Positions 9,986-55,138 of a DNA stretch of 64,000 nt are shown here, one piece after another. The position numbers were made by a program, and so were the translations under genes. Source of the stretch: an uncultured Gammaproteobacteria bacterium (GTDB taxonomy: Bacteria > Patescibacteriota > Patescibacteriia > Magasanikbacterales > UBA922); NCBI GenBank assembly GCA_964566225.1, contig CAZMHV010000001.1, positions 21,963 through 85,962 of the forward strand. The letters are read 5' to 3'. Numbering within the stretch: the stretch's first letter is position 1; every line of letters starts with the position of its first letter. The notes beneath the pieces are model-generated. The model was given only the letters and a program-made list of their open reading frames with translations. It had not been told where the DNA came from and searched no databases.

Positions 9986-10065
9986 TTTTGAGGCAAATTT
10001 TTTTTAGTATACGTCTATATTTTTTTCAAAAAATGTTGTATACTTATATACATAAAGTAGTAAGT

Positions 10066-11445
10066 ATGGGTGAATTAAAAAAAATTATTCTTTTTTTATA
10101 CTCAATCTTCATTGGTGTATTTTTCTTTTTTGATACTACGCAGGCTAGTTATATAGATGATACCCAATCAGAATTTGATTTGGGTACGTATGCTGACATC
10201 CAGTGGGATCAGGTAAATTCATGGTTAGAGTTGGATGCAACGGGTTTATCTACAAAAGTTGGAACCTATACCTCCAAAATTTTTGACTCTACGTATAGTT
10301 CTACGGTATGGAACACGTTGTCCTGGAGTCCACATTTTCCTTATAATAAACCACTTCCAAATTCAAACGCTACAGAGACAGCCTACTCATCTGGAAATTT
10401 TGCAATGACGAGTAATGTACTTTTATTGCATATGGATGAGTCCAGTGGAAATTTGGTTGATAGCTCTGCTTCAGGGGGAAGTTGTACTGCTTCTAATCTA
10501 GCATATGGTACCAGTGGGCGATTGTCATCAAGTATTGACTTAGAACGAACCAATTCAGCAAAGGCGAGCTGTGGCGATAGTACTGACTATTCTTTTACCA
10601 ATGGAAGTGGTACAGATTTACCGATGAGCATATGTACCTGGTTTAATTTGGAGTCAACCCAAGCTGCTGATGGTCAAGAAATTATTTCAAAGATAAGTAC
10701 TGGTGCTTACGAATGGCAGATGTTAATAGCGCCAAGTAATAGAATCAACTTTTGGGCATATGGAGGGGGTTCTAGTGCAAATTATATAGGAGGAAGATCT
10801 GATGTAAATGCGTTTACGAGTACTGGAGTATGGTATCATCTTTGTGTTACCTACAGTGGAAATGAGGCATCAAGTGGTTTTAAAATGTATTTAAATGGAA
10901 GTCAAATCAACTTTACAGGGTCTTCTGGTGGTACCTATACTGGTATGTCAAATACTGCTGCACCAGCGGTTGTCGGAGCCTTAAATATTGGAGCTGATCC
11001 CGAATACTTTGATGGAAAACTCGATGAATTAGTTGTGTTCAAAGACAGAGTACTTACTGACTCTGAGATTCTCAACATGTATAGGAGAGGAACACTCAAT
11101 CTCAAATTTCAAGTACGCAGTTGTGACGATGCTTCGTGTGTTGGTGAAAATTTTGTAGGACAGGATGGTCTTACGAGTAATTATTATGAAGAATCTGACG
11201 TCACAAGTTTGGGGCTCCCTTCATTTGATATTTCTACGGCTGTTTCTACCAATCGATATTTTCAATATAGAGTTCAATATGTGACGACCGATTCATCGTA
11301 TTCTCCTGAAATATTATCAATTACCATTGATAATACAAATGGTGGAGATACGGCTGTGCCAGAGATGAGCGATGTTTTGATATCTCTGAGTGTTGTTTTT
11401 TCTCTGTTATTTTTGAGCAGAAAAAAGTTTCTTGAGGCACAATAA
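10066..11445 (+). CDS. secreted LamG/concanavalin-like domain protein, paralog B, VPEM + TM + RKK C-terminus
   Basis: Shares long motifs with paralog A (DDTQSEFD.GT...QWD..NWLE.DATG; WNT.SW.P..PY; RSC.DA.C; YFQYRV; GGDTAVPE). Start chosen at the signal-peptide ATG. Confidence 0.7.
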   Translation: MGELKKIILFLYSIFIGVFFFFDTTQASYIDDTQSEFDLGTYADIQWDQVNSWLELDATGLSTKVGTYTSKIFDSTYSSTVWNTLSWSPHFPYNKPLPNSNATETAYSSGNFAMTSNVLLLHMDESSGNLVDSSASGGSCTASNLAYGTSGRLSSSIDLERTNSAKASCGDSTDYSFTNGSGTDLPMSICTWFNLESTQAADGQEIISKISTGAYEWQMLIAPSNRINFWAYGGGSSANYIGGRSDVNAFTSTGVWYHLCVTYSGNEASSGFKMYLNGSQINFTGSSGGTYTGMSNTAAPAVVGALNIGADPEYFDGKLDELVVFKDRVLTDSEILNMYRRGTLNLKFQVRSCDDASCVGENFVGQDGLTSNYYEESDVTSLGLPSFDISTAVSTNRYFQYRVQYVTTDSSYSPEILSITIDNTNGGDTAVPEMSDVLISLSVVFSLLFLSRKKFLEAQ

Positions 11446-31997: not shown

Positions 31998-33032
31998 ATG
32001 ACGGATCGAAGATTTCACGAATATACCGACAAAATGGCTGATATAGATGATCAATTCGAATCATACGAAGGTAAGCAGATTCCTTTTTTTCAAGAATTTG
32101 AGAAAAATTTGGGTCGACCTCTTGATATACGAGCTTTAAGATGTAATGAAGAATATGTTAGATCCGTACAAAGACGTATTGCGCGCGAGCGTGCACTCGG
32201 ATGGGAAAGTCCACACGAAATAAAAAAAACGCCTGAGATGAAACAGATTTTAGAAAAAGCAATTGAGTGGGTAGTTGAAGAAATGAAGAGTATTGGCTAT
32301 CCTTTACAAATTGAATTATCTGAAGGACGCGTCCATTTTTTGAGACCCAAAGAGTATAATGAACTTGCCGGTCAAGAAAGTTGTGGATATGCTCAAGTTG
32401 CTTCAAATGAAGTATTTATTTCTTTTGATGATATGCATAAATCGAGTGTATATCTTTTTCAAAATGATCTTTTGGATGAAAGAGCAGAAGAGTCTTCTGT
32501 TGAAGAATACATGAAAAAATATATAGATATTTTAGCAACGACCATACATGAGTTTACGCATCTTGGGGGATATCAGAGATTTTATGCCCTAGCTTACGGA
32601 TATTATATGCGTACAGGATATACAACTCCAGGTCAAAATGGAGTAGAAGAAAAATTTTTAAGTTTAAATGAAGCTTTTGTTGAAAAATGGGCAAGAGAAA
32701 TATTGAAAAAAAATATTTCAAAGTTAGGAATAAGTAAATTTACTTCAGAATATATAGAAAGTTTTGATTTTGGATCTTATAATGGGGATGTCATGATATT
32801 AGAACATATTATTCGTGGTATAGCACAAAAACGTGGTGAAAGTGAAGAAAGTATATGGAAAACTTTTAAAGAAGGATATTGTGGTGGTGGCACCAAACAC
32901 TTGGTAGATATAGAAAAACATTTTGGAAAGGGAACATTAAAAAAATATGCGGACCTGAAACCAAGTGATGTCAAAGACAGAACAGATTTTTATTATGATT
33001 TTATAGACAAAATATTTACAGATAAATGGTAG
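31998..33032 (+). CDS. hypothetical protein with HEXXH motif (TIHEFTHLGG), possible zinc metallopeptidase
   Basis: Single HEFTH motif only. No wider family match recognised. Confidence 0.45.
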   Translation: MTDRRFHEYTDKMADIDDQFESYEGKQIPFFQEFEKNLGRPLDIRALRCNEEYVRSVQRRIARERALGWESPHEIKKTPEMKQILEKAIEWVVEEMKSIGYPLQIELSEGRVHFLRPKEYNELAGQESCGYAQVASNEVFISFDDMHKSSVYLFQNDLLDERAEESSVEEYMKKYIDILATTIHEFTHLGGYQRFYALAYGYYMRTGYTTPGQNGVEEKFLSLNEAFVEKWAREILKKNISKLGISKFTSEYIESFDFGSYNGDVMILEHIIRGIAQKRGESEESIWKTFKEGYCGGGTKHLVDIEKHFGKGTLKKYADLKPSDVKDRTDFYYDFIDKIFTDKW

Positions 33033-33236
33033 ATAAAATCAATGTTTGTCTCTCCTTCGTATAGGAAAAGGATTTTGGGCCTATCGTTCACTCCACAAAC
33101 AAACCATGCCTGTGTCGTATGTGCTTTCTTCTATCCAAATTTGAGTGATATTCAAGTTGGATCAAATAATCTTGTCTACGCAAATAAAAATAATCCTCGA
33201 ATTGTGGGGGTTATTTTTATTTGCGTAAAGGGGTCG

Positions 33237-33265
33237 TTGACTTTTGTCCAAAATTCATGTACATT
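33237..33265 (+). promoter_or_regulatory. sigma70-like promoter TTGACT-17nt-TACATT for the HAD gene
   Basis: Read directly. Followed by GGGGGAGG SD 7 nt before ATG. Confidence 0.45.
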
Positions 33266-33303
33266 TTTTTCACCCCACATTCCACAACCGGGGGAGGAGC
33301 ACC

Positions 33304-34017
33304 ATGCCGTTCGAACTCATGAGACAACGAGTTGCAGTCAGTCGGGCTGCGGGCAGAGACCCCGTGGTGGTCCTCGACCTGGACCACACCCTCTTCGACA
33401 ACGGTCCTCGGACCTGTGAGATTCTGCTCGAGTATGCCAACCAGCACAATCGCCCCGATCTGGGTGATGCGGTCATCGGTCTCGGCAACCTGCGCAATCT
33501 GCCGTATCTGTTCAAGGACATCGTGAACTTTGCCTTCAAGGGGCAGATTCCGAGTGATCTGGATCTCGGTGAGATCGGCAAGTTCTGGAAGGAGCGATTC
33601 TTCCAGGACGACTATATCAAGCATGACGTTCCCATCGAGGGGGCAGCCGAGTTCGCTCGGGGTATTCGCCTGGAGGGTGCACATCTGGTGTACCTGACTG
33701 GTCGTGATCGCCCCAACATGATGAAAGGCACTGTCAATAGCTTGTGGCATCACAGTTTTCCGGTGCCGGCGGACGGGGGGGTGACTCTCATCCTCAAGCC
33801 CTCGTTCGACCAGCCCGACGAGGACTTCAAGCGTGATGCCGTGTCCCAAATTCAGGGCATGGGTGAGGTGGTCGGGTTCGTCGACAACGAACCGGCCATG
33901 TGCCAGATCTTCAGGGACGCATTCCCCAAGGCCGTCATCATCTGCTACGGCGACATCTGCTTCAAGCCCATGGAGCTGCCGCCGAGCGTGTACCGGGTGA
34001 AGTCCTTCCCGGTCTGA
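33304..34017 (+). CDS. HAD-superfamily phosphatase/hydrolase, GC-rich
   Basis: Motif I VVLDLDHTLFDN (DxDxT), motif II LTGR, motif IV GFVDNE. High GC3. Confidence 0.6.
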   Translation: MPFELMRQRVAVSRAAGRDPVVVLDLDHTLFDNGPRTCEILLEYANQHNRPDLGDAVIGLGNLRNLPYLFKDIVNFAFKGQIPSDLDLGEIGKFWKERFFQDDYIKHDVPIEGAAEFARGIRLEGAHLVYLTGRDRPNMMKGTVNSLWHHSFPVPADGGVTLILKPSFDQPDEDFKRDAVSQIQGMGEVVGFVDNEPAMCQIFRDAFPKAVIICYGDICFKPMELPPSVYRVKSFPV

Positions 34018-35568: not shown

Positions 35569-35997
35569 ATGCAGCCCATCAGTCCTCACCTCAAGTTTTT
35601 TTTGAACCTGGCCAAAATTCAGGCTGTGCTTACGCGTCGTTTTGATTCTGGTCTTGGAGGACTTGGGTTTACTGACTTTATGATTTTGTTTCATCTCAGT
35701 CATGCCGAAGGTGAAAAGTTGCGCCGTGTGGACTTGGCCGAAAAAATTGGTCTCACTGCTTCGGGGGTAACAAGACTCTTGGCACCCATGGAAAAAGTGG
35801 GACTGGTCAAAAGAGAAGCCCACGAAGGCGATGCGCGTGTGAGTTATGTATTACTTGCATCTGGTGGCAAACGTCGTTTCCAAGAAACACTCGAACGCGC
35901 AGAATTTTTATCCGAAGAATTATTGCCAGCGGTTAAAAATAAAAAAATGAAAGAAGTGTGCGAAGTATTCCACGAACTTGGTGCCACTATTAAATAA
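35569..35997 (+). CDS. MarR-family transcriptional regulator
   Basis: Winged-helix region LAEKIGLTASGVTRLLAPMEKVGLVKRE..DARVSYVLLASGG. Sits 5' of the ABC exporter pair. Confidence 0.7.
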   Translation: MQPISPHLKFFLNLAKIQAVLTRRFDSGLGGLGFTDFMILFHLSHAEGEKLRRVDLAEKIGLTASGVTRLLAPMEKVGLVKREAHEGDARVSYVLLASGGKRRFQETLERAEFLSEELLPAVKNKKMKEVCEVFHELGATIK

Positions 35998-37766: not shown

Positions 37767-39523
37767 AAAACTATACCTTAAATACAACTCAAAACAAAAA
37801 AAGTAGCATGTGGGGAGCCCTGCGCAAAATGTATGCGTACATGAGTGATGAAAAGGGAACACTGCTTGTGGCGCTTGTAGCTACCATTATCAACTCCAGT
37901 TCTAATTTGTTGGGGCCATATATTTTTGGTCTTACGATTGATAAATTTATTATCAAAAAAGATTATGATGGAGTTTTGTATTACTCCCTTATTTTGTTTG
38001 GCATTTACGTTATTTCTTTTCTTGCACACAACGTACAAATGCGTCTCACTGGTGGAGTTGGACAGCGAGTGCTCTTTAAACTGCGCAATACTATTTTCAA
38101 TAAATTGCAATCTTTGCCAGTATCATTTTTTAACTCCAACAAAATTGGGGACTTGATTTCCCGCATCAACAATGACACAGATAAACTCAATCAATTTTTT
38201 TCTGAAACCCTCACCAGATTTATTGGAAGTATCTTTATTATTGGTGGTGCCGGTGCTTTTGTTGTGATTATTCATCCTCGACTTGGGCTTGCAGCACTTG
38301 TGCCTGCGCTTCTTATTTTAATTTTCACTCGTGTCATGTCACCACTTGTCAAAAGAAAAAATACCAAAGCATTGCAATCGACCGGCGTCATGAGTGCAGA
38401 GATTCAAGAAAGTTTGAATAACTTCAAAGTGATTGTGGCCTTTCACCGTCAGGATTATTTTCAAAAGAAATTTAGTGAAGTGAACCAAAAGAATTTTGAT
38501 GCGTCGATTGGTTCAGGTATTGCCAACACGATTTTTACCCCAATTTATGACTTTGCGGCCAACGCCGCACAGCTGATTGTGTTTGGCTATGGTGTGTACC
38601 TAATCATGCAAGGAGATTTGACTGTGGGACTCATGATTAGTTTTATTTCATACATGAATCGTTTTTACGATCCACTCAAACAAATGGCCATGCTGTGGGC
38701 GTCATTTCAAACAGCACTCGCAGGATGGGATCGTGTGGCTGAAATTTTGGCACTCGAATCTGACCTTACGGTGAGTGGCCAAGAGAACAATGTGTTGCCA
38801 GGGGCCAAATTACTCGAATTTCGTGATGTATCATTTCGGTATATTCCCGAAAAAGACGTGTTGAAACATTTTAATTTTCATTTGGAAAAAGGAAAAACCT
38901 ATGCACTTGTGGGACCAACCGGTGGTGGCAAAACAACCACGGCTTCACTCATGGCACGTTTGTTTGATCCAAGCGAAGGACAAATTCTTTTGAATGGCAA
39001 AGACTTGCGTGATTACACCGAAGAAGAACGCACCCAAAAAATTGGTTTTATTTTGCAAGAACCATTTTTGTTCACTGGCACGGTGGCGGAAAATATTGTC
39101 TATGGAAACAAAAAGTACGAGGGACTTGCCGGAGACGAATTATTGAAAGTTTTGCAAGACCATAACTTTGAAACATTGCTCGCACGTTTTGACGAAGGAC
39201 TCGAAACCAAAATTACAACCAGTTCAGATACCATGAGTCTTGGTCAAAGACAGCTCATTGCTTTCATGCGCGCAGTACTTCGTCACCCAGAAATTTTGAT
39301 TCTTGACGAAGCCACCGCCAACATTGATACAGTCACCGAACAACAACTCGAAGATATTTTGAGCAAGCTTCCAGCCGAGACCACCAAGGTTATTATTGCA
39401 CACCGTCTCAACACCATTGAAAATGCTGACGATATATTTTTTATCAACGACGGTCAGCTCACCGAAGCTGGATCACTTGACCATGCCGTGAGTATGCTGC
39501 TCGAGGGCAAGCGGGTGAGTTAA
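37763..39523 (+). CDS. ABC exporter, fused permease/ATPase (ABCB type), subunit 2
   Basis: Walker A GPTGGGKTT, LSLGQRQL, Walker B LILDEATANID. Overlaps subunit 1 by 4 nt, suggesting a heterodimer. Confidence 0.85.
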   Translation: MKNYTLNTTQNKKSSMWGALRKMYAYMSDEKGTLLVALVATIINSSSNLLGPYIFGLTIDKFIIKKDYDGVLYYSLILFGIYVISFLAHNVQMRLTGGVGQRVLFKLRNTIFNKLQSLPVSFFNSNKIGDLISRINNDTDKLNQFFSETLTRFIGSIFIIGGAGAFVVIIHPRLGLAALVPALLILIFTRVMSPLVKRKNTKALQSTGVMSAEIQESLNNFKVIVAFHRQDYFQKKFSEVNQKNFDASIGSGIANTIFTPIYDFAANAAQLIVFGYGVYLIMQGDLTVGLMISFISYMNRFYDPLKQMAMLWASFQTALAGWDRVAEILALESDLTVSGQENNVLPGAKLLEFRDVSFRYIPEKDVLKHFNFHLEKGKTYALVGPTGGGKTTTASLMARLFDPSEGQILLNGKDLRDYTEEERTQKIGFILQEPFLFTGTVAENIVYGNKKYEGLAGDELLKVLQDHNFETLLARFDEGLETKITTSSDTMSLGQRQLIAFMRAVLRHPEILILDEATANIDTVTEQQLEDILSKLPAETTKVIIAHRLNTIENADDIFFINDGQLTEAGSLDHAVSMLLEGKRVS

Positions 39524-39570
39524 CAAGAGAAACAAAAACCAAAAACTGCTCCACAAGGGCAGTTTTTGTA

Positions 39571-39599
39571 TTGACATTTTTGTGTTTTGGGTGTACTGT
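39571..39599 (+). promoter_or_regulatory. sigma70-like promoter TTGACA-17nt-TACTGT for the GC-rich ORF; preceded by a weak terminator hairpin (39545-39563)
   Basis: Read directly. Confidence 0.45.
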
Positions 39600-39636
39600 C
39601 CGAGCATCACCAACCATCGCCCGAAAGGGGCAAACC

Positions 39637-40062
39637 ATGGCACGCGAAGATTGGAATGAGATTCAGCTCGGCCTCGTCGAGCGGATGAAGCGGGCTTTTG
39701 AGCACTGGCTCACCAAGAACAGCTGGAACGAGGAAGGTCCGTACAAGAAGGACATTCCGGAGCTTCGTCGCATTGTGGAGCGGAGCTTCAACTTGCTCCG
39801 CCTCTACAAGACGGAGGATCACCCGGGAGTCAAGTTCCTGATCATCCTGGGGGACCAGTACCTCGCGCGCTACGGGCAGTTGGCCCTGCCCACGGACGAG
39901 GACTGCTCGGCCCACAACTCCTCCTACCAGATGGAGAACCGGCTCATCCGCATGTTCATCCACGCGGGTTTCGAGCTGTGGGGCTTCTGCGTCATCCCGC
40001 AGATCAATAACCCCAAAACCAGCGCCGAGCCGTACTACATCGTGGTGGTGAAGATGCCCTGA
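39637..40062 (+). CDS. GC-rich hypothetical protein (141 aa)
   Basis: GGGG SD. Very high GC3 in this frame only. No homology recognised. Confidence 0.5.
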   Translation: MAREDWNEIQLGLVERMKRAFEHWLTKNSWNEEGPYKKDIPELRRIVERSFNLLRLYKTEDHPGVKFLIILGDQYLARYGQLALPTDEDCSAHNSSYQMENRLIRMFIHAGFELWGFCVIPQINNPKTSAEPYYIVVVKMP

Positions 40063-40182: not shown

Positions 40183-40938
40183 ATGAAAGAGTATTCTATT
40201 CAACAACTGGCCACCCTCGCAGGAGTCAGTGTGCGCACACTGCACTACTACCATGAAATTGGCCTGCTCACTCCTGCCCATGTCAAAAGCAATGGGTATC
40301 GTTACTATGGTGAAAAGCAATTGCTCTTGCTGCAACAAATTCTTTTTTTCAAAGAGCTCGAATTTCCACTTGATGAAATAAAAAGAATTGTGAAGTCGCC
40401 GTATTTTGATATGGAAACTGCTTTGCAGGAGCAAAAAAAAATGCTCTTGCTCAAAAGGAAACGAGTAGAAAAACTTATTCAAACCATTCATAAAACTTTA
40501 CAAAGTATGAAACAAGATGAAAAACTCCAAGACGAAGAATTGTATGATGCCTTCAAAGACGATGATGTCAAACAGTACCAAGACGAAGTCAAACAGCGTT
40601 GGGGCAACACCGATGCGTACAAACAAAGCATGGCGCGCGTGGGCAAAATGACCAAAGCGCAAATGGATAAATTTAAAGAAGATGGAAAAAAATTTACACA
40701 AAAACTTGCTGACGCAATGGATAAAGATATACAGAGTAAAGAAGTACAAGACCTGATTGTCGAGCACTACAAAGGCATTCAATTTTTTTATGACTGTCCA
40801 CTCGATATGTATCGTAACCTCGGAAAAATGTATGTCGATGATGCACGATTCACTGCGTACTATGATACGTTTCGGCCAGGGCTTGCCGTGTTTGTGCGTG
40901 ATGCGATTGAATATTTTTGTGAGGTAAATAAAAAGTAA
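40183..40938 (+). CDS. MerR-family transcriptional activator with C-terminal TipAS-like drug-binding domain (TipA/Mta type)
   Basis: N-terminal HTH YSIQQLATLAGVSVRTLHYYHEIGLL, followed by a coiled coil and C-terminal domain. Confidence 0.75.
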   Translation: MKEYSIQQLATLAGVSVRTLHYYHEIGLLTPAHVKSNGYRYYGEKQLLLLQQILFFKELEFPLDEIKRIVKSPYFDMETALQEQKKMLLLKRKRVEKLIQTIHKTLQSMKQDEKLQDEELYDAFKDDDVKQYQDEVKQRWGNTDAYKQSMARVGKMTKAQMDKFKEDGKKFTQKLADAMDKDIQSKEVQDLIVEHYKGIQFFYDCPLDMYRNLGKMYVDDARFTAYYDTFRPGLAVFVRDAIEYFCEVNKK

Positions 40939-40985: not shown

Positions 40986-41178
40986 TTTTGGAATTTCGTC
41001 CTGGCTCCGTATTGGCTGTGGACTCATCAGATTCTGCATCACAGAATGATTCCCCCAGATGCTTGCCGAGTCAAGCTTCTGGGTCATGCTTCTTTCTCCT
41101 TAGTGAGAAGCATCCTTGTTGTGGGTGATCAATGAAGATCATTGTTGCCAAGAGGTCTCGGTGTCTCTTGGCAGGTGC

Positions 41179-41520
41179 TCACGTGCCGGTGGCTTGCCGC
41201 AGGTCCTCGTGGAACTGCGCGCCGTCGAACAGGCGCTCACTCTGCGCGGGCTGGGCGTGGTGGCCCACGAGGGAGTCGAACATCCCCTCGCGGTCGTCAT
41301 CGACCAGTTCCACCTCCCCGGGCCAGCCGTCTTCGTGTCCGTCGACCCGGTCCGTGGTCACGCTCACCTCGGTGTCCACGTCCATCACGTGCGGGGCGGC
41401 GTTGGCCGGCTGGGTGTGGACCACCTGCACGACCACGGTTTCGGCCGGGGGCGTGGCGAGGTAGGCGGGCGTTCCGCGCATGGCGGGGCGGGGGGCGTCG
41501 TCGCTCATCCAAGGAAACAT
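41179..41520 (-). CDS. GC-rich acidic hypothetical protein (113 aa: MFPWMSDDAPRPAMRG...)
   Basis: GGAGAG SD 5 nt before ATG. GC3 about 90% in this frame. Overlapping ORFs in the other five frames are treated as GC shadows. Confidence 0.45.
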   Translation of the reverse strand: MFPWMSDDAPRPAMRGTPAYLATPPAETVVVQVVHTQPANAAPHVMDVDTEVSVTTDRVDGHEDGWPGEVELVDDDREGMFDSLVGHHAQPAQSERLFDGAQFHEDLRQATGT

Positions 41521-41581
41521 GGTTCTCTCCGTCTCGTGAAGGCAAGCTCTCGCTCGCCGTTGGGTTCGCCCGTCGATCGCG

Positions 41582-41628
41582 GGCACCAAAAAATTTTTGT
41601 CTCCGAGACTTAAAAATTTTTTGGTGCC
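41582..41628. repeat. 47-nt near-perfect palindrome: 17-bp perfect arms GGCACCAAAAAATTTTT / AAAAATTTTTTGGTGCC around an inner GTCTC-CGA-GAC mini-hairpin
   Basis: Arms are exact reverse complements. Lies between two co-directional GC-rich ORFs. Confidence 0.75.
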
Positions 41629-41716
41629 TACGATTTTTTTTGAGAAATTGAAATGGCGGGCGGTGCAGTTCTCCTTTCTATTGATGCACCGTGTTTGCCA
41701 CCCCGAAATGGGAAGA

Positions 41717-42085
41717 TCAGTGGACGTCGGCGTCGCCCTTGGGGAGGTACGAGCCCTCCTCCAGGGTGAACTCGTCGTCGATCACGGAGGTGATCTGGTA
41801 GCGGATTTCGCCCGTCACCATATCCCGTTTCACGATCATGCGCGTCTCCACTGGGCGACATGTCTCGAAGTCGTCGTACTGGTGGTTCTTCACCGCCTGC
41901 TTGACGATGTCTTCGCCAGCGTCGTGCTCGTCGCACTTGGGCGACACATCCACGGTCGGCGCGGGCCGACGGATGAACGTGATGGCCTCGTCCTTTTGGG
42001 GCTGCAGCGGGTTCATCACCTGCCACAGGCCGAAGAAGAACATGGCCATCAGCGCCGCAATCTGGGCAAAGAGCTTCCAGCTCAT
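41717..42085 (-). CDS. GC-rich membrane-anchored hypothetical protein (122 aa; N-terminal TM MSWKLFAQIAALMAMFFFGLWQVM)
   Basis: GGAGAGGG SD. High GC3. One TM helix then a soluble domain. Confidence 0.45.
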   Translation of the reverse strand: MSWKLFAQIAALMAMFFFGLWQVMNPLQPQKDEAITFIRRPAPTVDVSPKCDEHDAGEDIVKQAVKNHQYDDFETCRPVETRMIVKRDMVTGEIRYQITSVIDDEFTLEEGSYLPKGDADVH

Positions 42086-42306
42086 GTAAATCCCTCTCCA
42101 GTCAACATGGTTGTCAAACAAACGGTGACATCGCACCGCCATTTCAACTTCTCAATATAAATGCCAAAATACAGCAATTTCGCTGTACCGTTTGAGTTGT
42201 AAGAAACTGAGATGGGTGCGGCGCGACAGACAGAAGATCCTCCTGGATTCTTCTGCTGTATCGCTTACCCCCACCACCTGCTCGAGTCGCCGTTCGTCCG
42301 TGAGGA

Positions 42307-42480
42307 CTACTGGCGGCGGCTGGGCAGGTCGCCCGCCGGACGCGTCCGGGGCGGGCTGTTGAACCAGGCCTCTTCGACGGGGTCGAACCCGTCCTTCTCA
42401 CCCGGGTTGTTCGGACCCTCCGGACCGGGGATCTCGATGCAGGGGGTGGCGTCGGTGGTGATGTTCCTCTCGGGGGCCAT
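42307..42480 (-). CDS. GC-rich Pro/Gly-rich small ORF (57 aa)
   Basis: GGAGA SD, high GC3, downstream hairpin. The antisense ORF 42212..42628 is a competing call. Confidence 0.3.
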   Translation of the reverse strand: MAPERNITTDATPCIEIPGPEGPNNPGEKDGFDPVEEAWFNSPPRTRPAGDLPSRRQ

Positions 42481-42587
42481 TGGGGGTCTCCGTATTCTAG
42501 TTCCCGTTACCACGGGAGGGGCGGGGGTAAGTGCGATTGGTATCGCGCCGCCATCTCAATTTCCTTCAATTGTAAACGGGAAAGGAT

Positions 42588-42616
42588 ATCACAAAACAAA
42601 GTTTTTGTCAAGTCCT
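42588..42616 (-). promoter_or_regulatory. sigma70-like promoter TTGACA-17nt-TATCCT on the minus strand, heading a roughly 110-nt leader into the GC-rich cluster
   Basis: Read on the minus strand. Coordinates are approximate (within a few nt). Confidence 0.35.
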
Positions 42617-43893: not shown

Positions 43894-44649
43894 ATGGAAA
43901 AACACAAAATCACAATTGAAGAAAAAATAATGAAAGAAATACAGACCGGTAAAGTAAAGGTTCGTTCTCGGTATGTATTTCTTGCCGAAAAGCTTGGACT
44001 GGGGAGTGTTATTGTGCTCAGTATTTTGCTTGGTGCACTTTTTTTTCACCTTTTATTCTACTATTTAGACCAAACAGATAATTTAGTTTTTTTGAGTTTT
44101 GGCAGATCTGGATGGTATGCTTTTTTGGAATCATTTCCGTATTTGTTAGTAGTATCTTTTATTTTACTCGTCTTTGTTGCTGGATACTTACTCAAAAAAA
44201 CAGATTTTTCATACCAAAAGCCATTTGCGTATTCTTCTGTTACATTATTGGTAGTGGTTATGGTGGGGGGAGCTGTGCTTACTTTTACGGGTGTTGCACA
44301 GTCTCTTGAAATGCGTGGATTTTTGCATGGGAGGGGTGCTGGTATTATTCGTCCATTTTTGCACAACTGTTTTTCGCATAAAAAATATGGTATTTCTGGT
44401 CAGATTTTGGAAGTACGAGGGCAGTCGCTTATTTTGCTCACTCCGGATGGAGTACAACAAATTAACTTTTTTAATGCGCCACCGCTTGATCCTCAGGCTG
44501 TTGGCAAATATATTATTGTCGTCGGAGAAAGAAAAGGGGAGACTTTTCAGGGGGTCCATGTGCAGGTAGTGCCTCAAGAGAGAATTCCTGCTATTCATCG
44601 GGGAGTACGCATGCGTTTTCCTCTTCCACCAGGTATTTTGGTACAGTAA
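43894..44649 (+). CDS. membrane protein, putative anti-sigma factor
   Basis: Starts 2 nt after the sigma gene. Short cytoplasmic N-terminus then TM helices. Confidence 0.45.
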   Translation: MEKHKITIEEKIMKEIQTGKVKVRSRYVFLAEKLGLGSVIVLSILLGALFFHLLFYYLDQTDNLVFLSFGRSGWYAFLESFPYLLVVSFILLVFVAGYLLKKTDFSYQKPFAYSSVTLLVVVMVGGAVLTFTGVAQSLEMRGFLHGRGAGIIRPFLHNCFSHKKYGISGQILEVRGQSLILLTPDGVQQINFFNAPPLDPQAVGKYIIVVGERKGETFQGVHVQVVPQERIPAIHRGVRMRFPLPPGILVQ

Positions 44650-44699
44650 AAGCATGATTTTGAAAAAATGAAATATTTTGCTCGGCAGGTTGTAGTATA

Positions 44700-44870
44700 A
44701 ATAGATGACACTACTGTCATTCTCGGACTGCATGGGGTGTATATATCCTGCATATGTTCACCTCTTTTTGACTCGGCTGGGCGAGGTCCGTACCTATATG
44801 CTTCGCATGGGGAGCATCGCACGGATTCTATCGCCAGCCTGGTCGTCAGTTGTTTTTTGTAATTGAAGTT
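44700..44870 (+). ncRNA. candidate structured RNA / leader (moderately GC-rich, multiple long-range complementarities), class unknown
   Basis: No convincing ORF. GGCTGGGCGA...TCGCCAGCC long-range stem, ATGC-TTC-GCAT hairpin. A U-run at 44860s and a terminator at 44888-44915 follow. Confidence 0.2.
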
Positions 44871-44938
44871 TTGAAAAAATGATCCGAGGCCCGGGTCATT
44901 TTTTCATTTCATAAAAATTTTTATCCACAGGCGTTGTC

Positions 44939-44967
44939 TTGACTAATGCAACTTAGTTGCATATACT
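44939..44967 (+). promoter_or_regulatory. znuA-like gene promoter TTGACT-18-TATACT with embedded palindromic operator AATGCAAC-TTA-GTTGCATA (44945-44963)
   Basis: Read directly. The same module recurs at 46117-46146. Confidence 0.6.
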
Positions 44968-45009
44968 AAATACATACTTTGATATTTGTCTGTCAAAGTT
45001 ATACATAGG

Positions 45010-45037
45010 GAGAAAAAGAGCTTTGGCTCTTTTTCTC
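45010..45037 (+). promoter_or_regulatory. perfect 12-bp hairpin (GAGAAAAAGAGC-TTTG-GCTCTTTTTCTC) in the znuA-like 5' leader; possible attenuator
   Basis: Read directly. Lies between the promoter and the start codon. Confidence 0.4.
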
Positions 45038-45063
45038 TCTACAAAAAATTTAATATCCAAACT

Positions 45064-46047
45064 ATGAAAAAATATATACTGGGTGTCGTAATTATTCTTG
45101 TCGTGGGTTTTGGCATGGTTCTTGCCTTTCAAAAAAAATCATCGACTCCTGCCCAAAAACAAAATGAACAAAAAATAGATGTGGTGGTTACTTTTTATCC
45201 ACTCGAGTACATTGCAACACAGGTTGGTGGAGACTTGGTGAATGTGTCAATGCTTACTCCAGCTGGGGGAGAGCCGCATGATTATGATCCAACCGCACAA
45301 GACATTATCAAAATCCGTACGAGTGATCTTTTTGTCATGAATGGTGCAGACTTTGAACCTTGGGCCGAAAAACTCTTGCCAGAATTAGAAAAAGAAAAGG
45401 TACACTTTATTGAAATGTCAGAACATGTTGAGTTGCTCAAAGCAACCGAACATGGAGATGAACACACTGAAGAAGGTGAAGCCACCGAAGAAGTTGGACA
45501 CCATCATGAAATGGGGGAGTTTGATCCACATTTTTGGCTCAGTCCTACTCGATTGCAACAAGAGGTAAAAATACTTGCAACAACACTTTCAGAAATTGAC
45601 CCACAAAACGCAAGTACGTATCAAAAAAATGCAGAAGTGTTATTGAATAAAATTGTGAGTATTGAAAATGAATATAAAAAAGGACTTGCAAATTGTACAA
45701 AAAAAGAAGTTGTGACTTCTCATAATGCTTTTTCATATCTTGCAAGTGATTATAACTTTGAGGTTCACGGGATTGCAGGACTTTCTGTATCTGAAGAACC
45801 ATCAGCACAGCACCTTGCAGAGTTGACTCAACTGGTGAAAGATGAAGGTATTGAATATATTTTTACTGAGACTTTGGTAAGTCCAAAGTTTGCAAATACT
45901 CTGGCAAAGGAAACAGGAGTAATGGTAGCTATATTAAATCCACTTGAAGGTTTGAACGAGCAAGAAAAAAAAGAAGGAAAAAATTTGGAAACAATTCTTT
46001 TTGAAAATTTAAAAAATCTTCAAAAGGGATTAGATTGTCGTGGATAA
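45064..46047 (+). CDS. znuA: periplasmic metal-binding protein of ABC transporter (TroA/ZnuA family, likely zinc) with His/acidic-rich loop
   Basis: Lipoprotein-like signal. Cluster-9 SBP fold motifs. Loop HGDEHTEEGEATEEVGHHHEMGEFDPHFW is typical of ZnuA/AdcA. No adjacent znuBC. Confidence 0.7.
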   Translation: MKKYILGVVIILVVGFGMVLAFQKKSSTPAQKQNEQKIDVVVTFYPLEYIATQVGGDLVNVSMLTPAGGEPHDYDPTAQDIIKIRTSDLFVMNGADFEPWAEKLLPELEKEKVHFIEMSEHVELLKATEHGDEHTEEGEATEEVGHHHEMGEFDPHFWLSPTRLQQEVKILATTLSEIDPQNASTYQKNAEVLLNKIVSIENEYKKGLANCTKKEVVTSHNAFSYLASDYNFEVHGIAGLSVSEEPSAQHLAELTQLVKDEGIEYIFTETLVSPKFANTLAKETGVMVAILNPLEGLNEQEKKEGKNLETILFENLKNLQKGLDCRG

Positions 46048-46116
46048 ACAAAATAAATATAAAAATAGCAAAAAAGACTTTCCGTTGGGAGGTCTTTTTT
46101 TGTCCACAGGGGAGTA

Positions 46117-46146
46117 TTGACAAATGCAACTGAGTTGCATTAGTAT
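46117..46146 (+). promoter_or_regulatory. second copy of promoter/operator module: TTGACA-18-TAGTAT with palindrome AATGCAAC-TGA-GTTGCATT (46123-46141)
   Basis: Nearly identical to 44939-44967, including the upstream TCCACAGG. Confidence 0.6.
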
Positions 46147-46197
46147 GTAATTGAGAATAATCCGTCAATTATCCACGACCAACAGGGAGTAGTCCAC

Positions 46198-46818
46198 ATG
46201 CACTGGTTTTTTATTGCCATTATTGTCGTTTGTCTGTTTCCGATGAGCGTCTTGGCTCAGGTTCAGGCATATATCGTCGGTCGTACTCAGGCCGAGATTC
46301 TTTTGGAACTGCCGTGGAACTATGAAACCAGCGGTGGTTGGGAATTCAATCACTATGTTCTCACTGAGTCGGAGAATGTCACTGAAGGATTCCTGGGGCT
46401 TGGGACGGGAATCGGGATCGTTGGAGACGATATGGAATTGGAGGTGGGGCCACTGTGGCATGCAGATGAAGGTGAACTCGCTGTTTCGGCAGCTCTGTTC
46501 ATTTTGATGCATGACAAGGTCCGACTCGATTTTCATGGGCATGCGTCTTTGGAGGAATCGCATGGTGTGGCTGCTTTGGGGTATGTCTTTACCGATTGGT
46601 TTTTTGCGGGTTTGGTTGCCGAAGTGAGCCGAAATCCAGAGGCGATTCTTTCTCTTGGTGGTGCTTATCTGGCAGGGGTGTATCACCACCATTCTCGTGT
46701 GAAATTCTCAATGCTTTTTGGTACGTTTGCCTCTGGTTATGAAATCCCCGAGGATAAGCGTTTTCGGATCGCGTATATCGTTCCGACCTTGACGCTGGAA
46801 TTTCACTTTCATTTGTAG
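46198..46818 (+). CDS. GC-richer secreted beta-rich protein (206 aa), His-containing; possible small beta-barrel/OMP-like fold
   Basis: Signal peptide MHWFFIAIIVVCLFPMSVLAQVQA. Alternating hydrophobic pattern. C-terminal TLTLEFHFHL. Terminator hairpin at 46822-46845. Confidence 0.5.
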   Translation: MHWFFIAIIVVCLFPMSVLAQVQAYIVGRTQAEILLELPWNYETSGGWEFNHYVLTESENVTEGFLGLGTGIGIVGDDMELEVGPLWHADEGELAVSAALFILMHDKVRLDFHGHASLEESHGVAALGYVFTDWFFAGLVAEVSRNPEAILSLGGAYLAGVYHHHSRVKFSMLFGTFASGYEIPEDKRFRIAYIVPTLTLEFHFHL

Positions 46819-46871
46819 CATGCCGGGGCAGAACCTCGGCATGCCAGTGACTTGCTTTTTTCACTTTTTTT

Positions 46872-48665
46872 TTGTACCATAAAAAGATGAAAGACGTAAA
46901 ACTCTCTACTGGTCCTATTGTAATGTACTCAACCAAACAACTATTGGTTGATTTGTTTTTTTATCTTCATCCGTTTCGTGTTAAATTTTTTTGTGCTGTT
47001 ATATTTCGTCTGGTAAGTGATATTGTTTGGTTGTATCCATTTTATGCACTCTCACAAATTGTAAATTTTTTCTCTCACTATCAATCAGGTGATTCACTTG
47101 CAAATTTTTGGAAAATTTTTTCAATGTGGATTATTGCTGCTCTTTTATATTATAGTGGGCATTATTTTTCTAAATTTTTGGGATTTCGCATGGCCGAGCA
47201 AACCAATAGTCGGGCTCGTATTTTGGTGCTCAAACATCTTTTTTCTCTCGACTTGCATTGGCATGAAAAAGAAAATGCGGGGAATAAAATAAAGCGTATT
47301 GAAAAAGGTGCAGAAGGTCTCAACAGAATTTTACGCATGGTCATTGCCAATGTTATTGAGATAAGTGTGAATTTTGTGGGTATGACTTGGATTGTGGGAA
47401 GTATTGATAGGGTAGTGGGTCTTTGTTTAGTGGTATTTTTATCAACGTATTCTTGTATTTCTATATATTTACTCAAAAAGGCTCACCAGGCATCACAGCT
47501 GGTAGACATGAAAGACGAAGAAATTCATGGGCTTGCTTTTGAAGGAATGAATAATATTCGCAGTGTAAAAGTTTTGGGCATGGCAGATTCACTCTTTGAA
47601 ATTATTGAAAAAAATATCAAAGAATACGTACGGAGAATCTATAAACGGATTTTTTTCTTTCAAACTCGTGGAATCGTACAGGGTATTTGGTCCCAGAGTT
47701 GGTTACTTATTTCTTTGGTAGTAATTGTGTTTGGTATTATGAGTGGAAAGTACGAGGTTGGTTTTTTGGTGCTTTTCATGGGATATTTTCGTCGTATTAT
47801 TGAGTCACTCAATGAGTTATCCGAAGTTTCTCAAGATTTTGTTGTAGCCAAATATGGTGTTGGTCGAATGCAGTCAATAATGAATGAAAAAATTAATATT
47901 GATAATGATGAAGGAAAAGTTAATTTTCCGACTTCGTGGAAAAAAATCTCTCTTCGAGATGTATCATTTGCGTATGATCAAGATAAGGTACTCAGTCATA
48001 TATCGCTTGATATTCACAGAGGAGAAAAAGTAGGAATTGTAGGACTTTCTGGTGCCGGTAAATCGACTTTATTTAAATTGCTTCTCAAAGAAATAGAAAA
48101 TTATTCTGGAGAAATTCTTATTGATAACATACCTCTCAAAAACATAAAACGATCAGATTATTTTCACTACTCTGCTGTAGTGCTCCAAGAGACTGAAGTT
48201 TTTAACTTTACATTAGAACAAAACATTACTCTGGCCAATAAAAAGAAAGAAAAAAATTCTCAGTTGGTAGATCGTGCTCTTGCCATAGCTCATGTCTCTG
48301 ATTTTTTACAAAAATTTCCTTTGGGTAAGAAAACAGTGATTGGAGAAAAGGGGATAAAACTTTCGGGTGGAGAAAAACAGCGACTTGGCATTGCTCGTGC
48401 TGTGTTCAAACAACCTCAGTTGCTTTTTTTGGACGAAGCAACTTCGCATCTAGATATTGAATCCGAAGAAAAAATTCAAGATTCCTTGCATCAGTTTTTT
48501 CAAAATGTTACGGCGGTAGTCATTGCTCACAGACTTACGACCCTGCGTGAAATGGATAGAATTTTGGTGCTTGAGCATGGTAAAATTATTGAAGAAGGCT
48601 CATTTGAAGAACTCTCTGCCCAAAAAGGAAGATTCTTTGATTTATGGGAGAAACAAAAACTGTGA
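46872..48665 (+). CDS. ABC exporter, fused permease/ATPase
   Basis: Walker A GLSGAGKST, LSGGEKQRLGIAR, Walker B LFLDEATSHLD. 6-TM N-half. Confidence 0.8.
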   Translation: MYHKKMKDVKLSTGPIVMYSTKQLLVDLFFYLHPFRVKFFCAVIFRLVSDIVWLYPFYALSQIVNFFSHYQSGDSLANFWKIFSMWIIAALLYYSGHYFSKFLGFRMAEQTNSRARILVLKHLFSLDLHWHEKENAGNKIKRIEKGAEGLNRILRMVIANVIEISVNFVGMTWIVGSIDRVVGLCLVVFLSTYSCISIYLLKKAHQASQLVDMKDEEIHGLAFEGMNNIRSVKVLGMADSLFEIIEKNIKEYVRRIYKRIFFFQTRGIVQGIWSQSWLLISLVVIVFGIMSGKYEVGFLVLFMGYFRRIIESLNELSEVSQDFVVAKYGVGRMQSIMNEKINIDNDEGKVNFPTSWKKISLRDVSFAYDQDKVLSHISLDIHRGEKVGIVGLSGAGKSTLFKLLLKEIENYSGEILIDNIPLKNIKRSDYFHYSAVVLQETEVFNFTLEQNITLANKKKEKNSQLVDRALAIAHVSDFLQKFPLGKKTVIGEKGIKLSGGEKQRLGIARAVFKQPQLLFLDEATSHLDIESEEKIQDSLHQFFQNVTAVVIAHRLTTLREMDRILVLEHGKIIEEGSFEELSAQKGRFFDLWEKQKL

Positions 48666-48810: not shown

Positions 48811-49000
48811 ATCTTTCAAAAATCCCCTCTGTATGGGGGATTTTTGTTTTCTGTGGATAAGCAGGGAAGTGAGTAGCTTTTTACCCTGTGTACCGATTAT
48901 TTTTCTTGTTAAATTGTTTGTATACAGCCAATTTTTGGGTTGACCACGGTACTTTAGAAAAATTTCATATAAAGTATGGTAAAATACTTCTTATCTCTGT

Positions 49001-53788: not shown

Positions 53789-55138
53789 ATGAAATTGTTT
53801 CAAAAGGTCAGCACATTTACTTTTTTTGTGTCGGCCTTTTTTTTATTTCATGCTTCAATAGCACAGGCGAGTATTTTTACTGATACAAACTGTGCTTCAG
53901 AATTTGATAACGGTACACATAACAACACAGTTTGTGCTGGAGGCAATATGAAGCTCGATGCTACCGGACTTTCAAATGGTTCAGGTGTATTTACTTCTCG
54001 TGTTTTCAATACCCAGGCTGTTTTAAATACATTTTCATTTTTGAGTTGGGCATCACAGTATCCATATGGCAAAGAGTTGGTTGATTATGCACAGAATGAA
54101 AGTGGATATACCACTGGAAATATTTCAATGGAAAGCAATGTCTTGCTGCTTCACTTGAATTCGAACAGTACTTGGGGCGAAGGACTTGAAAGACAAAGTT
54201 TTGTCAATACTGCTACCTACTCAACATCATTCGCTGAGTGCTGGACAACTGATACTTGTCCTGTATCTGCAGACGGTAAATTAAGTTATGGATATAACTT
54301 TGATGGTGTCAATGATTTATTGGTCGTATCATCAACTTCTGAACTGCAACTTACGAATGCTTTTACCGTATCAGCATGGGTCAAACAGGATACTGCTGGC
54401 GACTCCAATAGTGATATGGTCGTAGTTGGAAAGGAAAGTGGCTCCAAAGGGTATTTGCTACGCACTGGTGGAAGAAAAGTAGAAGTGAGTGTTGGGGATG
54501 GAAGTAGTTGGCATACACTTACTGCGAGTAGTACATTTTCACTTGGAACTTGGCACCATATTGCGGCTACCCTGGAAAACAATGTTTTGAAAGTATATCT
54601 CGATGGATATCTCGACGGAATGGCTGACCAAGGTTCATCTACGGTGATTGCAACTTCTACAAGTCTCATCGCGATTGGGAACTCTCCTGCAGATAGTTCT
54701 CGTGCCTTTGATGGTACACTTGACGAAGTTGCGGTATTTAATAGTGCATTGACTGCTGATGATATTTTGAATATGTATATTCGTGGAGCACTCAATGTGA
54801 GATATCAGATCAAAATTTGTGATACTTCAAACTGCTCTGGTGGATATATTTTTACTGGTCCAAATAATACTGGTGAAACATATTATAGTGAACTGTTGAC
54901 CTTGTCAGAGAGTGCGCCAATGAAAAGTATTGGACAGAGTTATAACTATCCATATATTCAGTATAAAATGTATCTCGATACCGCCAGTACTACTTTATCT
55001 CCACAAATTGAAAGTGTTTCAATTTACTATAACATCTTTAGCACTGTTCCCGAAGGTATGACTTGGGCCTTTATTGGTGGTGCCATGTACATTATTTTTG
55101 TTATGAAGAAAAAATACCTCCAGGGCAAGGAGGTATAA
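53789..55138 (+). CDS. secreted LamG/concanavalin-like domain protein, paralog C, VPEG + TM + KKK C-terminus
   Basis: Shares SEFDNGT..., LSWASQYPYGKEL, VLLLHLN, LDEVAVFNSAL, IRGALNVRYQIKICDTSNCSG, YIQYKMY with paralogs A and B. Confidence 0.65.
   Translation: MKLFQKVSTFTFFVSAFFLFHASIAQASIFTDTNCASEFDNGTHNNTVCAGGNMKLDATGLSNGSGVFTSRVFNTQAVLNTFSFLSWASQYPYGKELVDYAQNESGYTTGNISMESNVLLLHLNSNSTWGEGLERQSFVNTATYSTSFAECWTTDTCPVSADGKLSYGYNFDGVNDLLVVSSTSELQLTNAFTVSAWVKQDTAGDSNSDMVVVGKESGSKGYLLRTGGRKVEVSVGDGSSWHTLTASSTFSLGTWHHIAATLENNVLKVYLDGYLDGMADQGSSTVIATSTSLIAIGNSPADSSRAFDGTLDEVAVFNSALTADDILNMYIRGALNVRYQIKICDTSNCSGGYIFTGPNNTGETYYSELLTLSESAPMKSIGQSYNYPYIQYKMYLDTASTTLSPQIESVSIYYNIFSTVPEGMTWAFIGGAMYIIFVMKKKYLQGKEV

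Follow-up and report, generated by a model that had tools for sequence, protein, structure and literature searches.

The locus analysed here raises two questions: which regulator, responding to which signal, recognises a palindrome that occurs in two neighbouring promoters, and what is the function of the secreted 206-aa protein encoded behind the second of them? An earlier note on this DNA had described a duplicated promoter-operator module and read it as part of a Zur or other Fur-family regulon. We revisited this reading for the whole 64-kb stretch (the window; the znuA-like gene, the 206-aa gene and their promoter elements and hairpins lie on the + strand, while the palindromes carry no strand) by comparison with related loci and with genomes from many phyla. 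With good confidence, resting on sequence comparison, we propose that both promoters are repressed by zinc-loaded Zur of the ZUR_D class, and that the 206-aa protein is likely an envelope zinc barrel.

Two promoters built around one palindrome

There are exactly two occurrences of AATGCAACTnAGTTGCAT(T/A) in the window. A motif search with its 17-bp core, ATGCAACNNNGTTGCAT, finds the core with 0 mismatches at 44946-44962 and 46124-46140, and no third copy in the 64 kb even at up to 2 mismatches (0.42 expected), while an extended 9-1-9 form, AAYGCAACTNAGTTGCRTT, returns the same two sites and no others at up to 3 mismatches (0.16 expected). The duplicated module is thereby confirmed and its palindrome is real, but it is longer than had been given: the full form is AATGCAACT-n-AGTTGCAT(T/A), at 44945-44963 (predicted Zur box 1, AATGCAACTTAGTTGCATA, with one mismatch at an arm end) and at 46123-46141 (predicted Zur box 2, AATGCAACTGAGTTGCATT, a perfect 9-1-9 palindrome).

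According to a consensus promoter scan, the best two sigma-70-like promoters of the region 44600-46900 are the ones that contain these boxes. The first, TTGACT-17-TATACT (44939-44967, 10/12), has its -35 at 44939-44944, kept in L003, L004 and L005, and its -10 at 44962-44967; the second, TTGACA-18-TAGTAT (46117-46146, 10/12), has its hexamers at 46117-46122 and 46141-46146. Both predicted promoters have the operator between hexamers 17 or 18 nt apart, within the 16-18 nt of a sigma-70 promoter. The box fills this spacer, as the placement between -35 and -10 had suggested; it abuts the -35 and extends 1-2 nt into the -10 (2 nt in the first promoter). This architecture is kept in all 10 promoters compared.

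The two modules are alike over ~110 bp. What they share extends from T(A/G)TCCACAGG upstream of the -35 to a Shine-Dalgarno-like AGGGAG. Read from the sequence, the upstream element is TTATCCACAGG in copy 1 (44921-44931, 7 nt before the -35) and TTGTCCACAGG in copy 2 (46100-46110), and in nine of the ten promoters of the lineage a TATCC(A/C)CA string lies 5-8 nt upstream of the -35. At the other end of the module, AGGGAG corresponds in copy 1 to the 5' arm of a leader hairpin, AGGGAGAAAAAGAGC-TTTG-GCTCTTTTTCTCTCT (45006-45041, inverted repeat I5), which is kept in L003 and L004, and in copy 2 it stands at 46186-46191, 6 nt 5' of the ATG. Copy 1 leads into the ZnuA-family gene (45064-46047), which is followed by a terminator-like hairpin, AAAAAAGACTTTCC-GTT-GGGAGGTCTTTTTT (46070-46100, inverted repeat I16), and copy 2 into the gene of the 206-aa protein (46198-46818). 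An assembly artefact can be dismissed, since L001 and L002, which are independent assemblies, show the same arrangement. Rfam returned only three tRNAs and chance-level matches, at the gathering threshold for the whole window and at E<=1 for 44600-45100, and module and leader thus contain no known RNA element.

The box is conserved upstream of both gene families in relatives. It precedes znuA in L003, L004 and L005 and the homologues of the 206-aa gene in L007, L008, L009, L129 and L130/L131, and it is carried by six of the six distinct family members for which upstream DNA is known. Across these relatives both arms change symmetrically, from ATGCAAC..GTTGCAT to ACGCAAC..GTTGCGT, which fits a site for a dimeric protein and not a relic. 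A search with the lineage-specific promoter pattern led to one fragmentary contig, L132.

Identity of the box and its spread across genomes

The palindrome had been described as unlike the Zur boxes known from Firmicutes, Actinobacteria or Proteobacteria. This does not hold, because its 17-bp core is letter-for-letter the ZUR_D consensus ATGCAACNNNGTTGCAT, predicted by Rodionov et al. (2004, Genome Biol 5:R90, PMC545781) upstream of znuABC-zur in two Desulfovibrio genomes, and the core of copy 2 is identical to the predicted site of D. desulfuricans, ATGCAACtgaGTTGCAT (PMC545781). Given this identity, the operator cannot count as new: its site type had already been predicted in Desulfovibrio. 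The 2004 prediction is also all that a search of the literature on this motif and on Zur in Patescibacteria brought up; no experimental paper on the box class was found.

A scan of species-representative genomes gave at least 119 exact sites, spread over many phyla, compared with a chance expectation of ~35 (our own estimate, from uniform base frequencies), and at least 48 of these sites have a Fur-family ORF within 8 kb. The carriers include Patescibacteria, Bacteroidota, Bdellovibrionota-labelled MAGs, Campylobacterota and others. In 22 of the 28 loci tested, from several phyla, a PF01475 gene starts 10-14 nt past the box of a TTGACA-box-TAnnnT promoter, which indicates autoregulation; the box would thus typically control the zur gene itself, with a start codon too near the promoter for any leader. 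Among the matches listed, the other genes flanking boxes encode ABC ATPases (17), ZnuA (8), cobW/COG0523 proteins (8), TonB Plug proteins (7) and DUF1826 proteins (2), and complete zur-znuA-znuC-znuB operons occur at box loci, for instance in L089. COG0523/cobW, DUF1826 and ZnuABC-type operons are hallmarks of Zur regulons. The motif is thus linked to Fur-family genes and to zinc genes across phyla, and together with the published consensus these neighbours lend strong comparative support to the proposed Zur regulon.

Neither the 64-kb window nor ~90 kb of related loci contains a Fur-family gene, and the cognate regulator of this genome is therefore not seen there. With no regulator gene adjacent, one could consider a non-Fur operator (ArsR/SmtB, MarR/AdcR, TetR or MerR), the more so as a MarR gene (35569-35997) and a MerR/TipAS gene (40183-40938) lie a few kb upstream and an ECF sigma/anti-sigma-like pair directly upstream of znuA in the window, L003 and L005; one could also consider a non-regulatory hairpin or repeat left by local duplication. 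The evidence makes either very improbable. Against them stand the Fur-family starts 10-14 nt after the exact motif and the symmetric change of both arms described above, and the MarR gene is grouped, here and in L008, with ABC exporters of its own. The motif is further distinct from TTAACNNGTTAA, the AdcR site, and from the 12-2-12 sites of SmtB, and the spacers of 17-18 bp, which are not over-long, are wrong for MerR-type activation, where spacers measure 19-20 bp.

The znuA-like gene and the family of the 206-aa protein

The first gene encodes a 327-aa protein that matches PF01297 over the full domain (E 2.4e-79), has a signal sequence without a lipobox Cys and contains a His/acidic loop, EHGDEHTEEGEATEEVGHHHEMGE, in agreement with the description of a TroA/ZnuA-family protein with a His-rich loop. 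The absence of adjacent partner genes was likewise borne out: tblastn with the ZnuB of L089 found no homologue in the window, and the ZnuC of L089 hit only generic ABC ATPases (FtsE, SufC, exporters), without a dedicated ZnuC among them. The ABC ATPase at 6156-7016 was rejected as a ZnuC because it is located in a Suf cluster. Genes for znuB and znuC are also missing from the related loci L003-L009.

The box-adjacent Fur-family proteins stay below every NCBIfam equivalog cut-off, so that metal specificity has to be read from regulon content alone. Could the repressor then sense manganese or iron (Mur/Fur) or peroxide (PerR), with the ZnuA-like protein and the 206-aa protein serving Mn or Fe uptake? 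Proteins of cluster A-I also bind Mn or Fe, and the Fur and PerR models fit the box-adjacent proteins slightly better than does E. coli Zur, all below cut-off. For the ZnuA-like protein itself, NCBIfam ranks the zinc proteins AdcA and AztC first, although neither reaches its cut-off; the ZnuA cut-off is also unreached, and MntC is a near-equal match. We nevertheless regard this reading as improbable, given the zinc hallmark genes and operons that flank the box elsewhere, the published assignment as ZUR, and the long His/acidic loop, which is typical of zinc-specific members. Poly-His proteins in the same operons point the same way: in L007 the box is followed by a homologue of the 206-aa gene, then by a gene whose 523-aa secreted product contains a His/Asp/Glu tract of ~270 aa, and then by znuA, and the family protein P0126 ends in DDNDDHHHHDH. 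Zinc thus appears the most plausible effector.

The 206-aa ORF begins with a signal-peptide-like stretch, and its GC content is 0.486 (GC3 0.50), compared with 0.370 (GC3 0.25) for znuA, so that its description as a secreted, GC-richer protein stands. It belongs to no described porin or outer-membrane protein family by sequence, with no match in NCBIfam, in Pfam even at E 5, or among PDB sequences. A search with the single sequence retrieves only itself, a 3-sequence profile adds one member, and the 3-sequence alignment found no related loci in metagenomes. Compared with its homologue in L008, the protein gives a BLASTP E of 0.19, which alone is not significant, but homology is established via P0126 (E 3e-10) together with a profile search. 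Among 1.84 billion representatives, the new small family comprises six credible members, none with an annotation.

Most genes of the family sit beside znuA. The homologues in L007, L008, L009, L129 and L130 have the same box and promoter and lie next to or near znuA, and in the first three the gene comes first in a box-controlled operon with znuA. These observations lend support to the suggestion that the secreted protein may be an uptake factor induced by zinc starvation. They also bear on a different history, in which copy 2 and the 206-aa gene are a recent horizontal insertion with a captured copy of the native znuA promoter, as would suit the GC difference to znuA, the similarity of the two modules, and the loci L003, L004 and L005, where the gene is missing between znuA and the next gene. 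This history is improbable. In L129, whose protein is a distant relative with 27% identity, the layout is the same (znuA end, hairpin, TTATCCACA, box promoter, family gene, recQ), and all genes of the family are GC-richer than their genomes, which makes the higher GC a property of the family. Together with the operons of L007, L008 and L009, this indicates that the association of gene and box is old, and the picture of an atypical ORF fused to a native promoter can be set aside.

As regards its structure, a first AF2 model from 4 sequences was poor (pLDDT 44). With a 7-sequence alignment, the predicted model is a closed antiparallel barrel of 11-12 strands (pLDDT 83), similar to known outer-membrane channels, KdgM and PcoB among them. 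Residues E33, S58, E91, H113, H122, H203 and H205 are the conserved His/Glu positions of the family. The last strand alternates as L-x-F-x-F-x-L and the protein ends in EFHFHL, with a terminal Leu rather than the usual aromatic residue; in homologues the C-terminus reads HFHLFE, HFHLLE or GHVL, or is a poly-His tail.

The predicted fold raises a question about the envelope, as the host lineage looks Patescibacteria-like, a group regarded as single-membraned, and none of the window ORFs scanned over the 64 kb is an outer-membrane biogenesis or BAM gene. It is possible, but not what we favour, that the protein is a soluble or wall-associated extracellular zinc binder that hands zinc to ZnuA, as do ZinT, AztD and the polyhistidine-triad proteins. 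A more speculative proposal, which we consider unlikely, takes the family for genuine zinc channels, lined with His and spanning a membrane, in a supposedly single-membrane lineage; if this is true, either these cells have an outer lipid layer that has gone unrecognised, or the barrel is exported and enters the membrane of a host cell, from which it would draw zinc. Two further Zur-box proteins of ~200 aa, in L063 (Magasanikiibacteriota) and L037, are look-alikes beside znuA for which homology tests found no relation to the barrel family. They raise the possibility that small barrels under Zur control recur as a so far undescribed zinc-uptake module.

Proposed mechanism and comparison with known systems

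In the mechanism that we propose, a Zur dimer would bind the 9-1-9 palindrome AAYGCAACT-n-AGTTGCRTT, and since the palindrome occupies the whole spacer between -35 and -10, bound Zur would exclude RNA polymerase. When zinc is scarce, Zur would shed its regulatory zinc and leave the DNA, and derepression would yield two separate transcripts, for znuA and for the exported 206-aa protein. ZnuA would act as the high-affinity zinc binder of an ABC importer, with the membrane and ATPase components presumably encoded elsewhere. The 206-aa protein would most likely form a small beta-barrel (~12 strands) with the conserved His/Glu on one face of the strands, and may sit in an outer layer of the envelope as a zinc-permeable channel, or as a zinc-capturing pore that feeds ZnuA. 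The regulation itself is of an ordinary kind; what is new is the small predicted barrel family without annotation. Its only consistent features are the Zur box and a neighbouring znuA, so that a role in acquiring zinc can be tested for it. Should its hosts indeed have a single membrane, the family would also pose a question about their envelope. The occurrence of the Desulfovibrio-type box across phyla also makes it a usable handle for zinc regulons in uncultured bacteria.

The closest known system is ZUR_D of Desulfovibrio, with which the locus shares the identical 17-bp core, a ZnuA-family gene downstream and the link to Fur-family genes across genomes. It differs in that znuA stands apart from znuBC and from zur, in that the second copy drives a gene family outside the Desulfovibrio regulon, and in its host, an uncultured, low-GC and probably Patescibacteria-like lineage; the site is also more fully defined here, as a 9-1-9 palindrome that exactly fills the promoter spacer. 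In classical Zur regulation, a Fur-family dimer on a palindrome over -35 and -10 blocks RNA polymerase at sufficient zinc (PMC8000910). The locus resembles the systems of E. coli, B. subtilis and Actinobacteria in this position and, across the genomes that carry the box, in a regulon with ZnuA, COG0523 and TonB receptors, whereas its operator, with the half-site AAYGCAACT, has no relation to their AT-rich 7-1-7 or TGTTAT-type boxes.

For the 206-aa protein, the comparison leads in two directions. Like ZinT, AztD and the Pht/AdcAII partners, it is exported, contains His and appears co-regulated with a protein of the ZnuA/AztC/AdcA kind, often from an adjacent gene. Those partners are soluble or lipid-anchored and have lipocalin-like, beta-propeller or His-triad folds, whereas the model obtained here shows a transmembrane-type closed barrel. 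In this respect it recalls small metal-related outer-membrane barrels such as PcoB/CopB, for copper, and the Mur-regulated Mn2+ channel MnoP of Bradyrhizobium. It differs from these in having no sequence similarity to them, in its smaller size (~185 mature residues), in its HxH end, in a host whose outer membrane is uncertain, and in its metal, which here is presumably zinc.

A predicted operator shared by two promoters

Searching the window for the 17-mer ATGCAACNNNGTTGCAT, we found two copies, at 44946-44962 and 46124-46140, and no third site with up to two mismatches (0.42 expected). The full sites are 9-1-9 palindromes, AATGCAACT-T-AGTTGCATA at 44945-44963 (copy 1) and AATGCAACT-G-AGTTGCATT at 46123-46141 (copy 2), and this form, allowing up to three mismatches, gave no further match in the window. 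Both lie in promoters with a consensus score of 10/12, TTGACT-17-TATACT (44939-44967) and TTGACA-18-TAGTAT (46117-46146), the top two of a consensus scan over 44600-46900. Given the hexamer positions, the palindrome fills the spacer, abutting the -35 hexamer and overlapping the first part of the -10 hexamer, and the two modules can be aligned from T(A/G)TCCACAGG, 5' of the -35, to AGGGAG. Two independent assemblies have the same arrangement, and the twin promoters described in an earlier note are confirmed. The genes behind them are also as described there: copy 1 is followed by the gene for a ZnuA-family protein that has a His/acidic loop (PF01297, E 2e-79), copy 2 by a 206-aa ORF of secreted type with a signal-peptide-like N-terminus. 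We call the latter the barrel gene, after its predicted fold.

Contigs that carry the nearest homologues of ZnuA (50-60% identical) have this promoter as well. The region upstream of znuA reads TTGACTAATGCAACT(G/C)AGTTGCATTATAAT in L003 and L004, and its counterpart in L005 is TTGACAAACGCAACTAAGTTGCATTATACT. In L007, L008 and L009 a TTGACAAACGCAACTCAGTTGCGTTAATAT module lies 5' of a 215-221-aa ORF just upstream of znuA. The genes for two further homologues of the barrel protein, P0126 (contig L129) and P0125 (L130/L131), carry the box within a TTGACA...TAAT promoter, and with these it is present in all six different members of the family whose upstream DNA could be read. Among the relatives the box arms vary in concert, AT giving way to CG at the arm's second position, which is what recognition by a symmetric dimer predicts.

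Gene order varies around the box. L003 and L004 have znuA alone, and in L005 it is followed by an ABC exporter; barrel gene and znuA share a single box in L008 and L009. L007 has the order barrel, poly-His protein, znuA under a common Zur box, the middle gene (5216-6787) encoding a secreted 523-aa protein, some 270 residues of which form a tract that is almost wholly His/Asp/Glu/Asn (HEHEDDHTHEDHHDEDENHNHEHD...), with no Pfam match and no homologue in the window. In the window and in L129, znuA and the barrel gene each have their own box, and the two layouts are exactly the same: znuA end, hairpin, TTATCCACA, box promoter, barrel gene, recQ.

Several further elements accompany these promoters. 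The string TTATCCACAG(G), which matches the DnaA-box consensus TTATCCACA exactly, is present 5-8 nt 5' of the -35 in 9/10 Zur-box promoters of the window lineage. It is found in the window at 44921-44931, 46100-46110 and 48852-48860 (minus strand), and in relatives at L003 3781-3792, L004 2353-2363, L063 4505-4514 and L037 1590-1599. It also precedes recQ, there without a Zur box, and in L063, L037 and L028 stands immediately 3' of the box, at the usual position of the -10 hexamer. With at most one mismatch, 34 such strings occur in the window against 20.7 expected, six of them within 44921-46177. Between an anti-sigma-like membrane gene and the znuA promoter lies a conserved non-coding stretch (window ~44690-44912; L003 2270-2568; L004 885-1160; L005 1262-1445) with its own promoter-like TGTAGTATAAAT, a terminator hairpin (44872-44906) and a conserved long-range helix, GACTGGG...CCTGGTC, supported by two compensatory pairs in four sequences; it has no Rfam match and is a candidate small RNA. 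The znuA leader contains a conserved hairpin (45006-45041) whose 5' arm is AGGGAG, the Shine-Dalgarno of copy 2, and the znuA start codon, 22 nt further 3', is without an obvious Shine-Dalgarno. It may be left over from an older operon that had the barrel gene first, or may serve to control translation.

The protein family beside znuA

The 215-221-aa ORFs of L007-L009 belong to the same family as the window protein, a profile search recovering all of them. The pairwise match between the window protein and the L008 ORF is weak (E 0.19), and P0126, which carries a DDNDDHHHHDH tail, bridges the groups (E 3e-10 to the window protein, 1e-8 to L008). Against 1.84 billion representatives the family profile gave seven matches, of which one, a repeat protein, is dubious, and the 206-aa protein has no relative by sequence in Pfam, NCBIfam or PDB. 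The conserved residues are mostly His/Glu (E33, S58, E91, H113, H122, H203, H205). The supposition that a native promoter had recently been fused to a compositionally atypical ORF does not hold: barrel genes are GC-richer than their own genomes in every case (0.44-0.53 vs 0.38-0.40), so the composition is a family trait and no sign of recent fusion. GC-rich islands also occur in the window at 41100-42600, 33000-34000 and 39000-40000 (up to 60% GC vs ~40% for the window), the first holding two small minus-strand ORFs (41179-41589, 41717-42142) with no Pfam/NCBIfam match; the barrel gene (46198-46818) shows a milder contrast of the same sort.

An AlphaFold model of the 206-aa protein, based on a 7-sequence alignment (pLDDT 83.1, pTM 0.73), consists of a signal helix followed by 11 long antiparallel strands. 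Its fold-comparison scores were 12.1 for the KdgM-family porin VhGalP (161 residues aligned), 11.4 for the copper channel PcoB, 11.1 for KdgM, about 11 for autotransporter and intimin beta-domains and 10.9 for OpcA; Foldseek returned porins and VDAC/Tom40, agreeing in kind, with low TM-scores. E201, H203 and H205 share one face of the last strand, where they alternate with L200, F202 and F204. The best reading of the model is a small outer-envelope barrel that would be zinc-permeable or zinc-capturing and supply ZnuA. The host is the difficulty for this reading. The nearest named relatives, both for ZnuA and for the promoter type, the LamG proteins with C-terminal anchors, and the ribosomal operon of L007, where the S5-L15 gap is too short for L30, suggest a Patescibacteria-like host. 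Patescibacteria are regarded as single-membraned, and no outer-membrane genes were seen in the window; that the barrel forms a true membrane channel in such a lineage we consider improbable. The main rival, a soluble or wall-bound zinc-binding partner, seems possible if somewhat doubtful.

The window encodes three paralogous Laminin_G_3 (LamG) surface proteins (8527-9909, 9988-11445, 53789-55138), in at least the first of which a PEF-like motif, then a hydrophobic helix, then basic residues (VPEFSDFVFF...VKR) make up the end of the chain, resembling a C-terminal sorting signal. Signal-peptide proteins of about 200 aa are divergent from znuA at L063 4623-5231 (Magasanikiibacteriota) and L037 1672-2292, with Zur boxes in between. 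Both are Gly/aromatic-rich and strand-like, the latter starting DEPDHHDHDGEDHDHDHDEG and ending ...GLGVHF, and no homology could be detected between the two or with the window family. Possibly they are small barrels of an analogous kind, likewise under Zur control.

The box across genomes and its known class

Scanning one genome per species (596 Gb) for exact AAYGCAACTNAGTTGCRTT gave at least 119 loci, against a chance estimate of ~35 at uniform base frequencies. The matches listed fall mainly within Patescibacteria (Falkow-, Uhr-, Moran-, Magasanik-, Peregrini-, Peri-, Pacei- and Saccharibacteria), Bacteroidota, Bdellovibrionales-labelled MAGs, Campylobacterota and some Proteobacteria. At many listed loci a 125-147-aa ORF begins 10-14 nt past the box, which sits in a TTGACA-box-TAnnnT promoter. 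Fur-family proteins (PF01475), with HHHH..C..C and C..C motifs, made up 22 of the 28 box-proximal ORFs tested, the other six being MerC-like ORFs of Flavobacteriia-type loci. Among the 119 loci listed, 48 have a Fur-family ORF and 22 a ZnuA homologue; flanking ORFs include ABC ATPases (17), ZnuA (8), cobW/COG0523 (8), TonB Plug (7) and DUF1826 (2), and complete zur-znuA-znuC-znuB operons occur (e.g. L089). This context is the picture of a predicted autoregulated zinc uptake regulator.

In eight listed cases the box lies between zur, starting right after the promoter, and a divergent RelA/SpoT-HD-TGS gene of ~500-520 aa (L042, L056, L058, L070, L108, L127 and others, from Moranbacteria and Bdellovibrionales-labelled MAGs), which hints that (p)ppGpp metabolism and the zinc regulon are connected. 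The Bacteroidota regulon differs in make-up from that of Patescibacteria: there the box lies between a MerC-like 126-136-aa membrane protein (PF03203) and a 208-aa ABC-ATPase-like gene (L031, L073, L075, L090, L120 and other Flavobacteriia loci), PF03203 giving 18 matches across two scanned sets of ORFs flanking the listed loci.

No Fur-family gene was found in the 64-kb window or in the related loci searched, and the box-adjacent Fur proteins missed all NCBIfam equivalog cut-offs, their likeness to Fur/PerR models being as great as that to E. coli Zur. The predicted assignment to zinc therefore rests on what the regulon contains, on ZnuA's His-rich loop, on poly-His proteins of the operons (the 523-aa protein of L007 and P0126 with its tail) and on a published assignment. 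The window has neither a znuB nor a dedicated znuC; znuA is uncoupled from zur and znuCB in this lineage, these genes being contiguous in other Patescibacteria. The Zur interpretation of the earlier note, as predicted regulation, was right in substance, the box being linked elsewhere to Fur-family and zinc genes.

The value of these observations lies in the breadth of the box class over phyla and in an unannotated Zur-box-linked barrel family beside znuA; Zur control of znuA is itself routine. Our literature search found no experiment on this class and no publication with the motif besides Rodionov et al. 2004 (PMC545781). The palindrome had been thought unlike any known Zur box, which is incorrect, since the D. 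desulfuricans ZUR site reported there, ATGCAACtgaGTTGCAT, equals copy 2 letter for letter. The operator class is thus already described, the window box being identical in type to the computationally predicted Zur boxes of Desulfovibrio.
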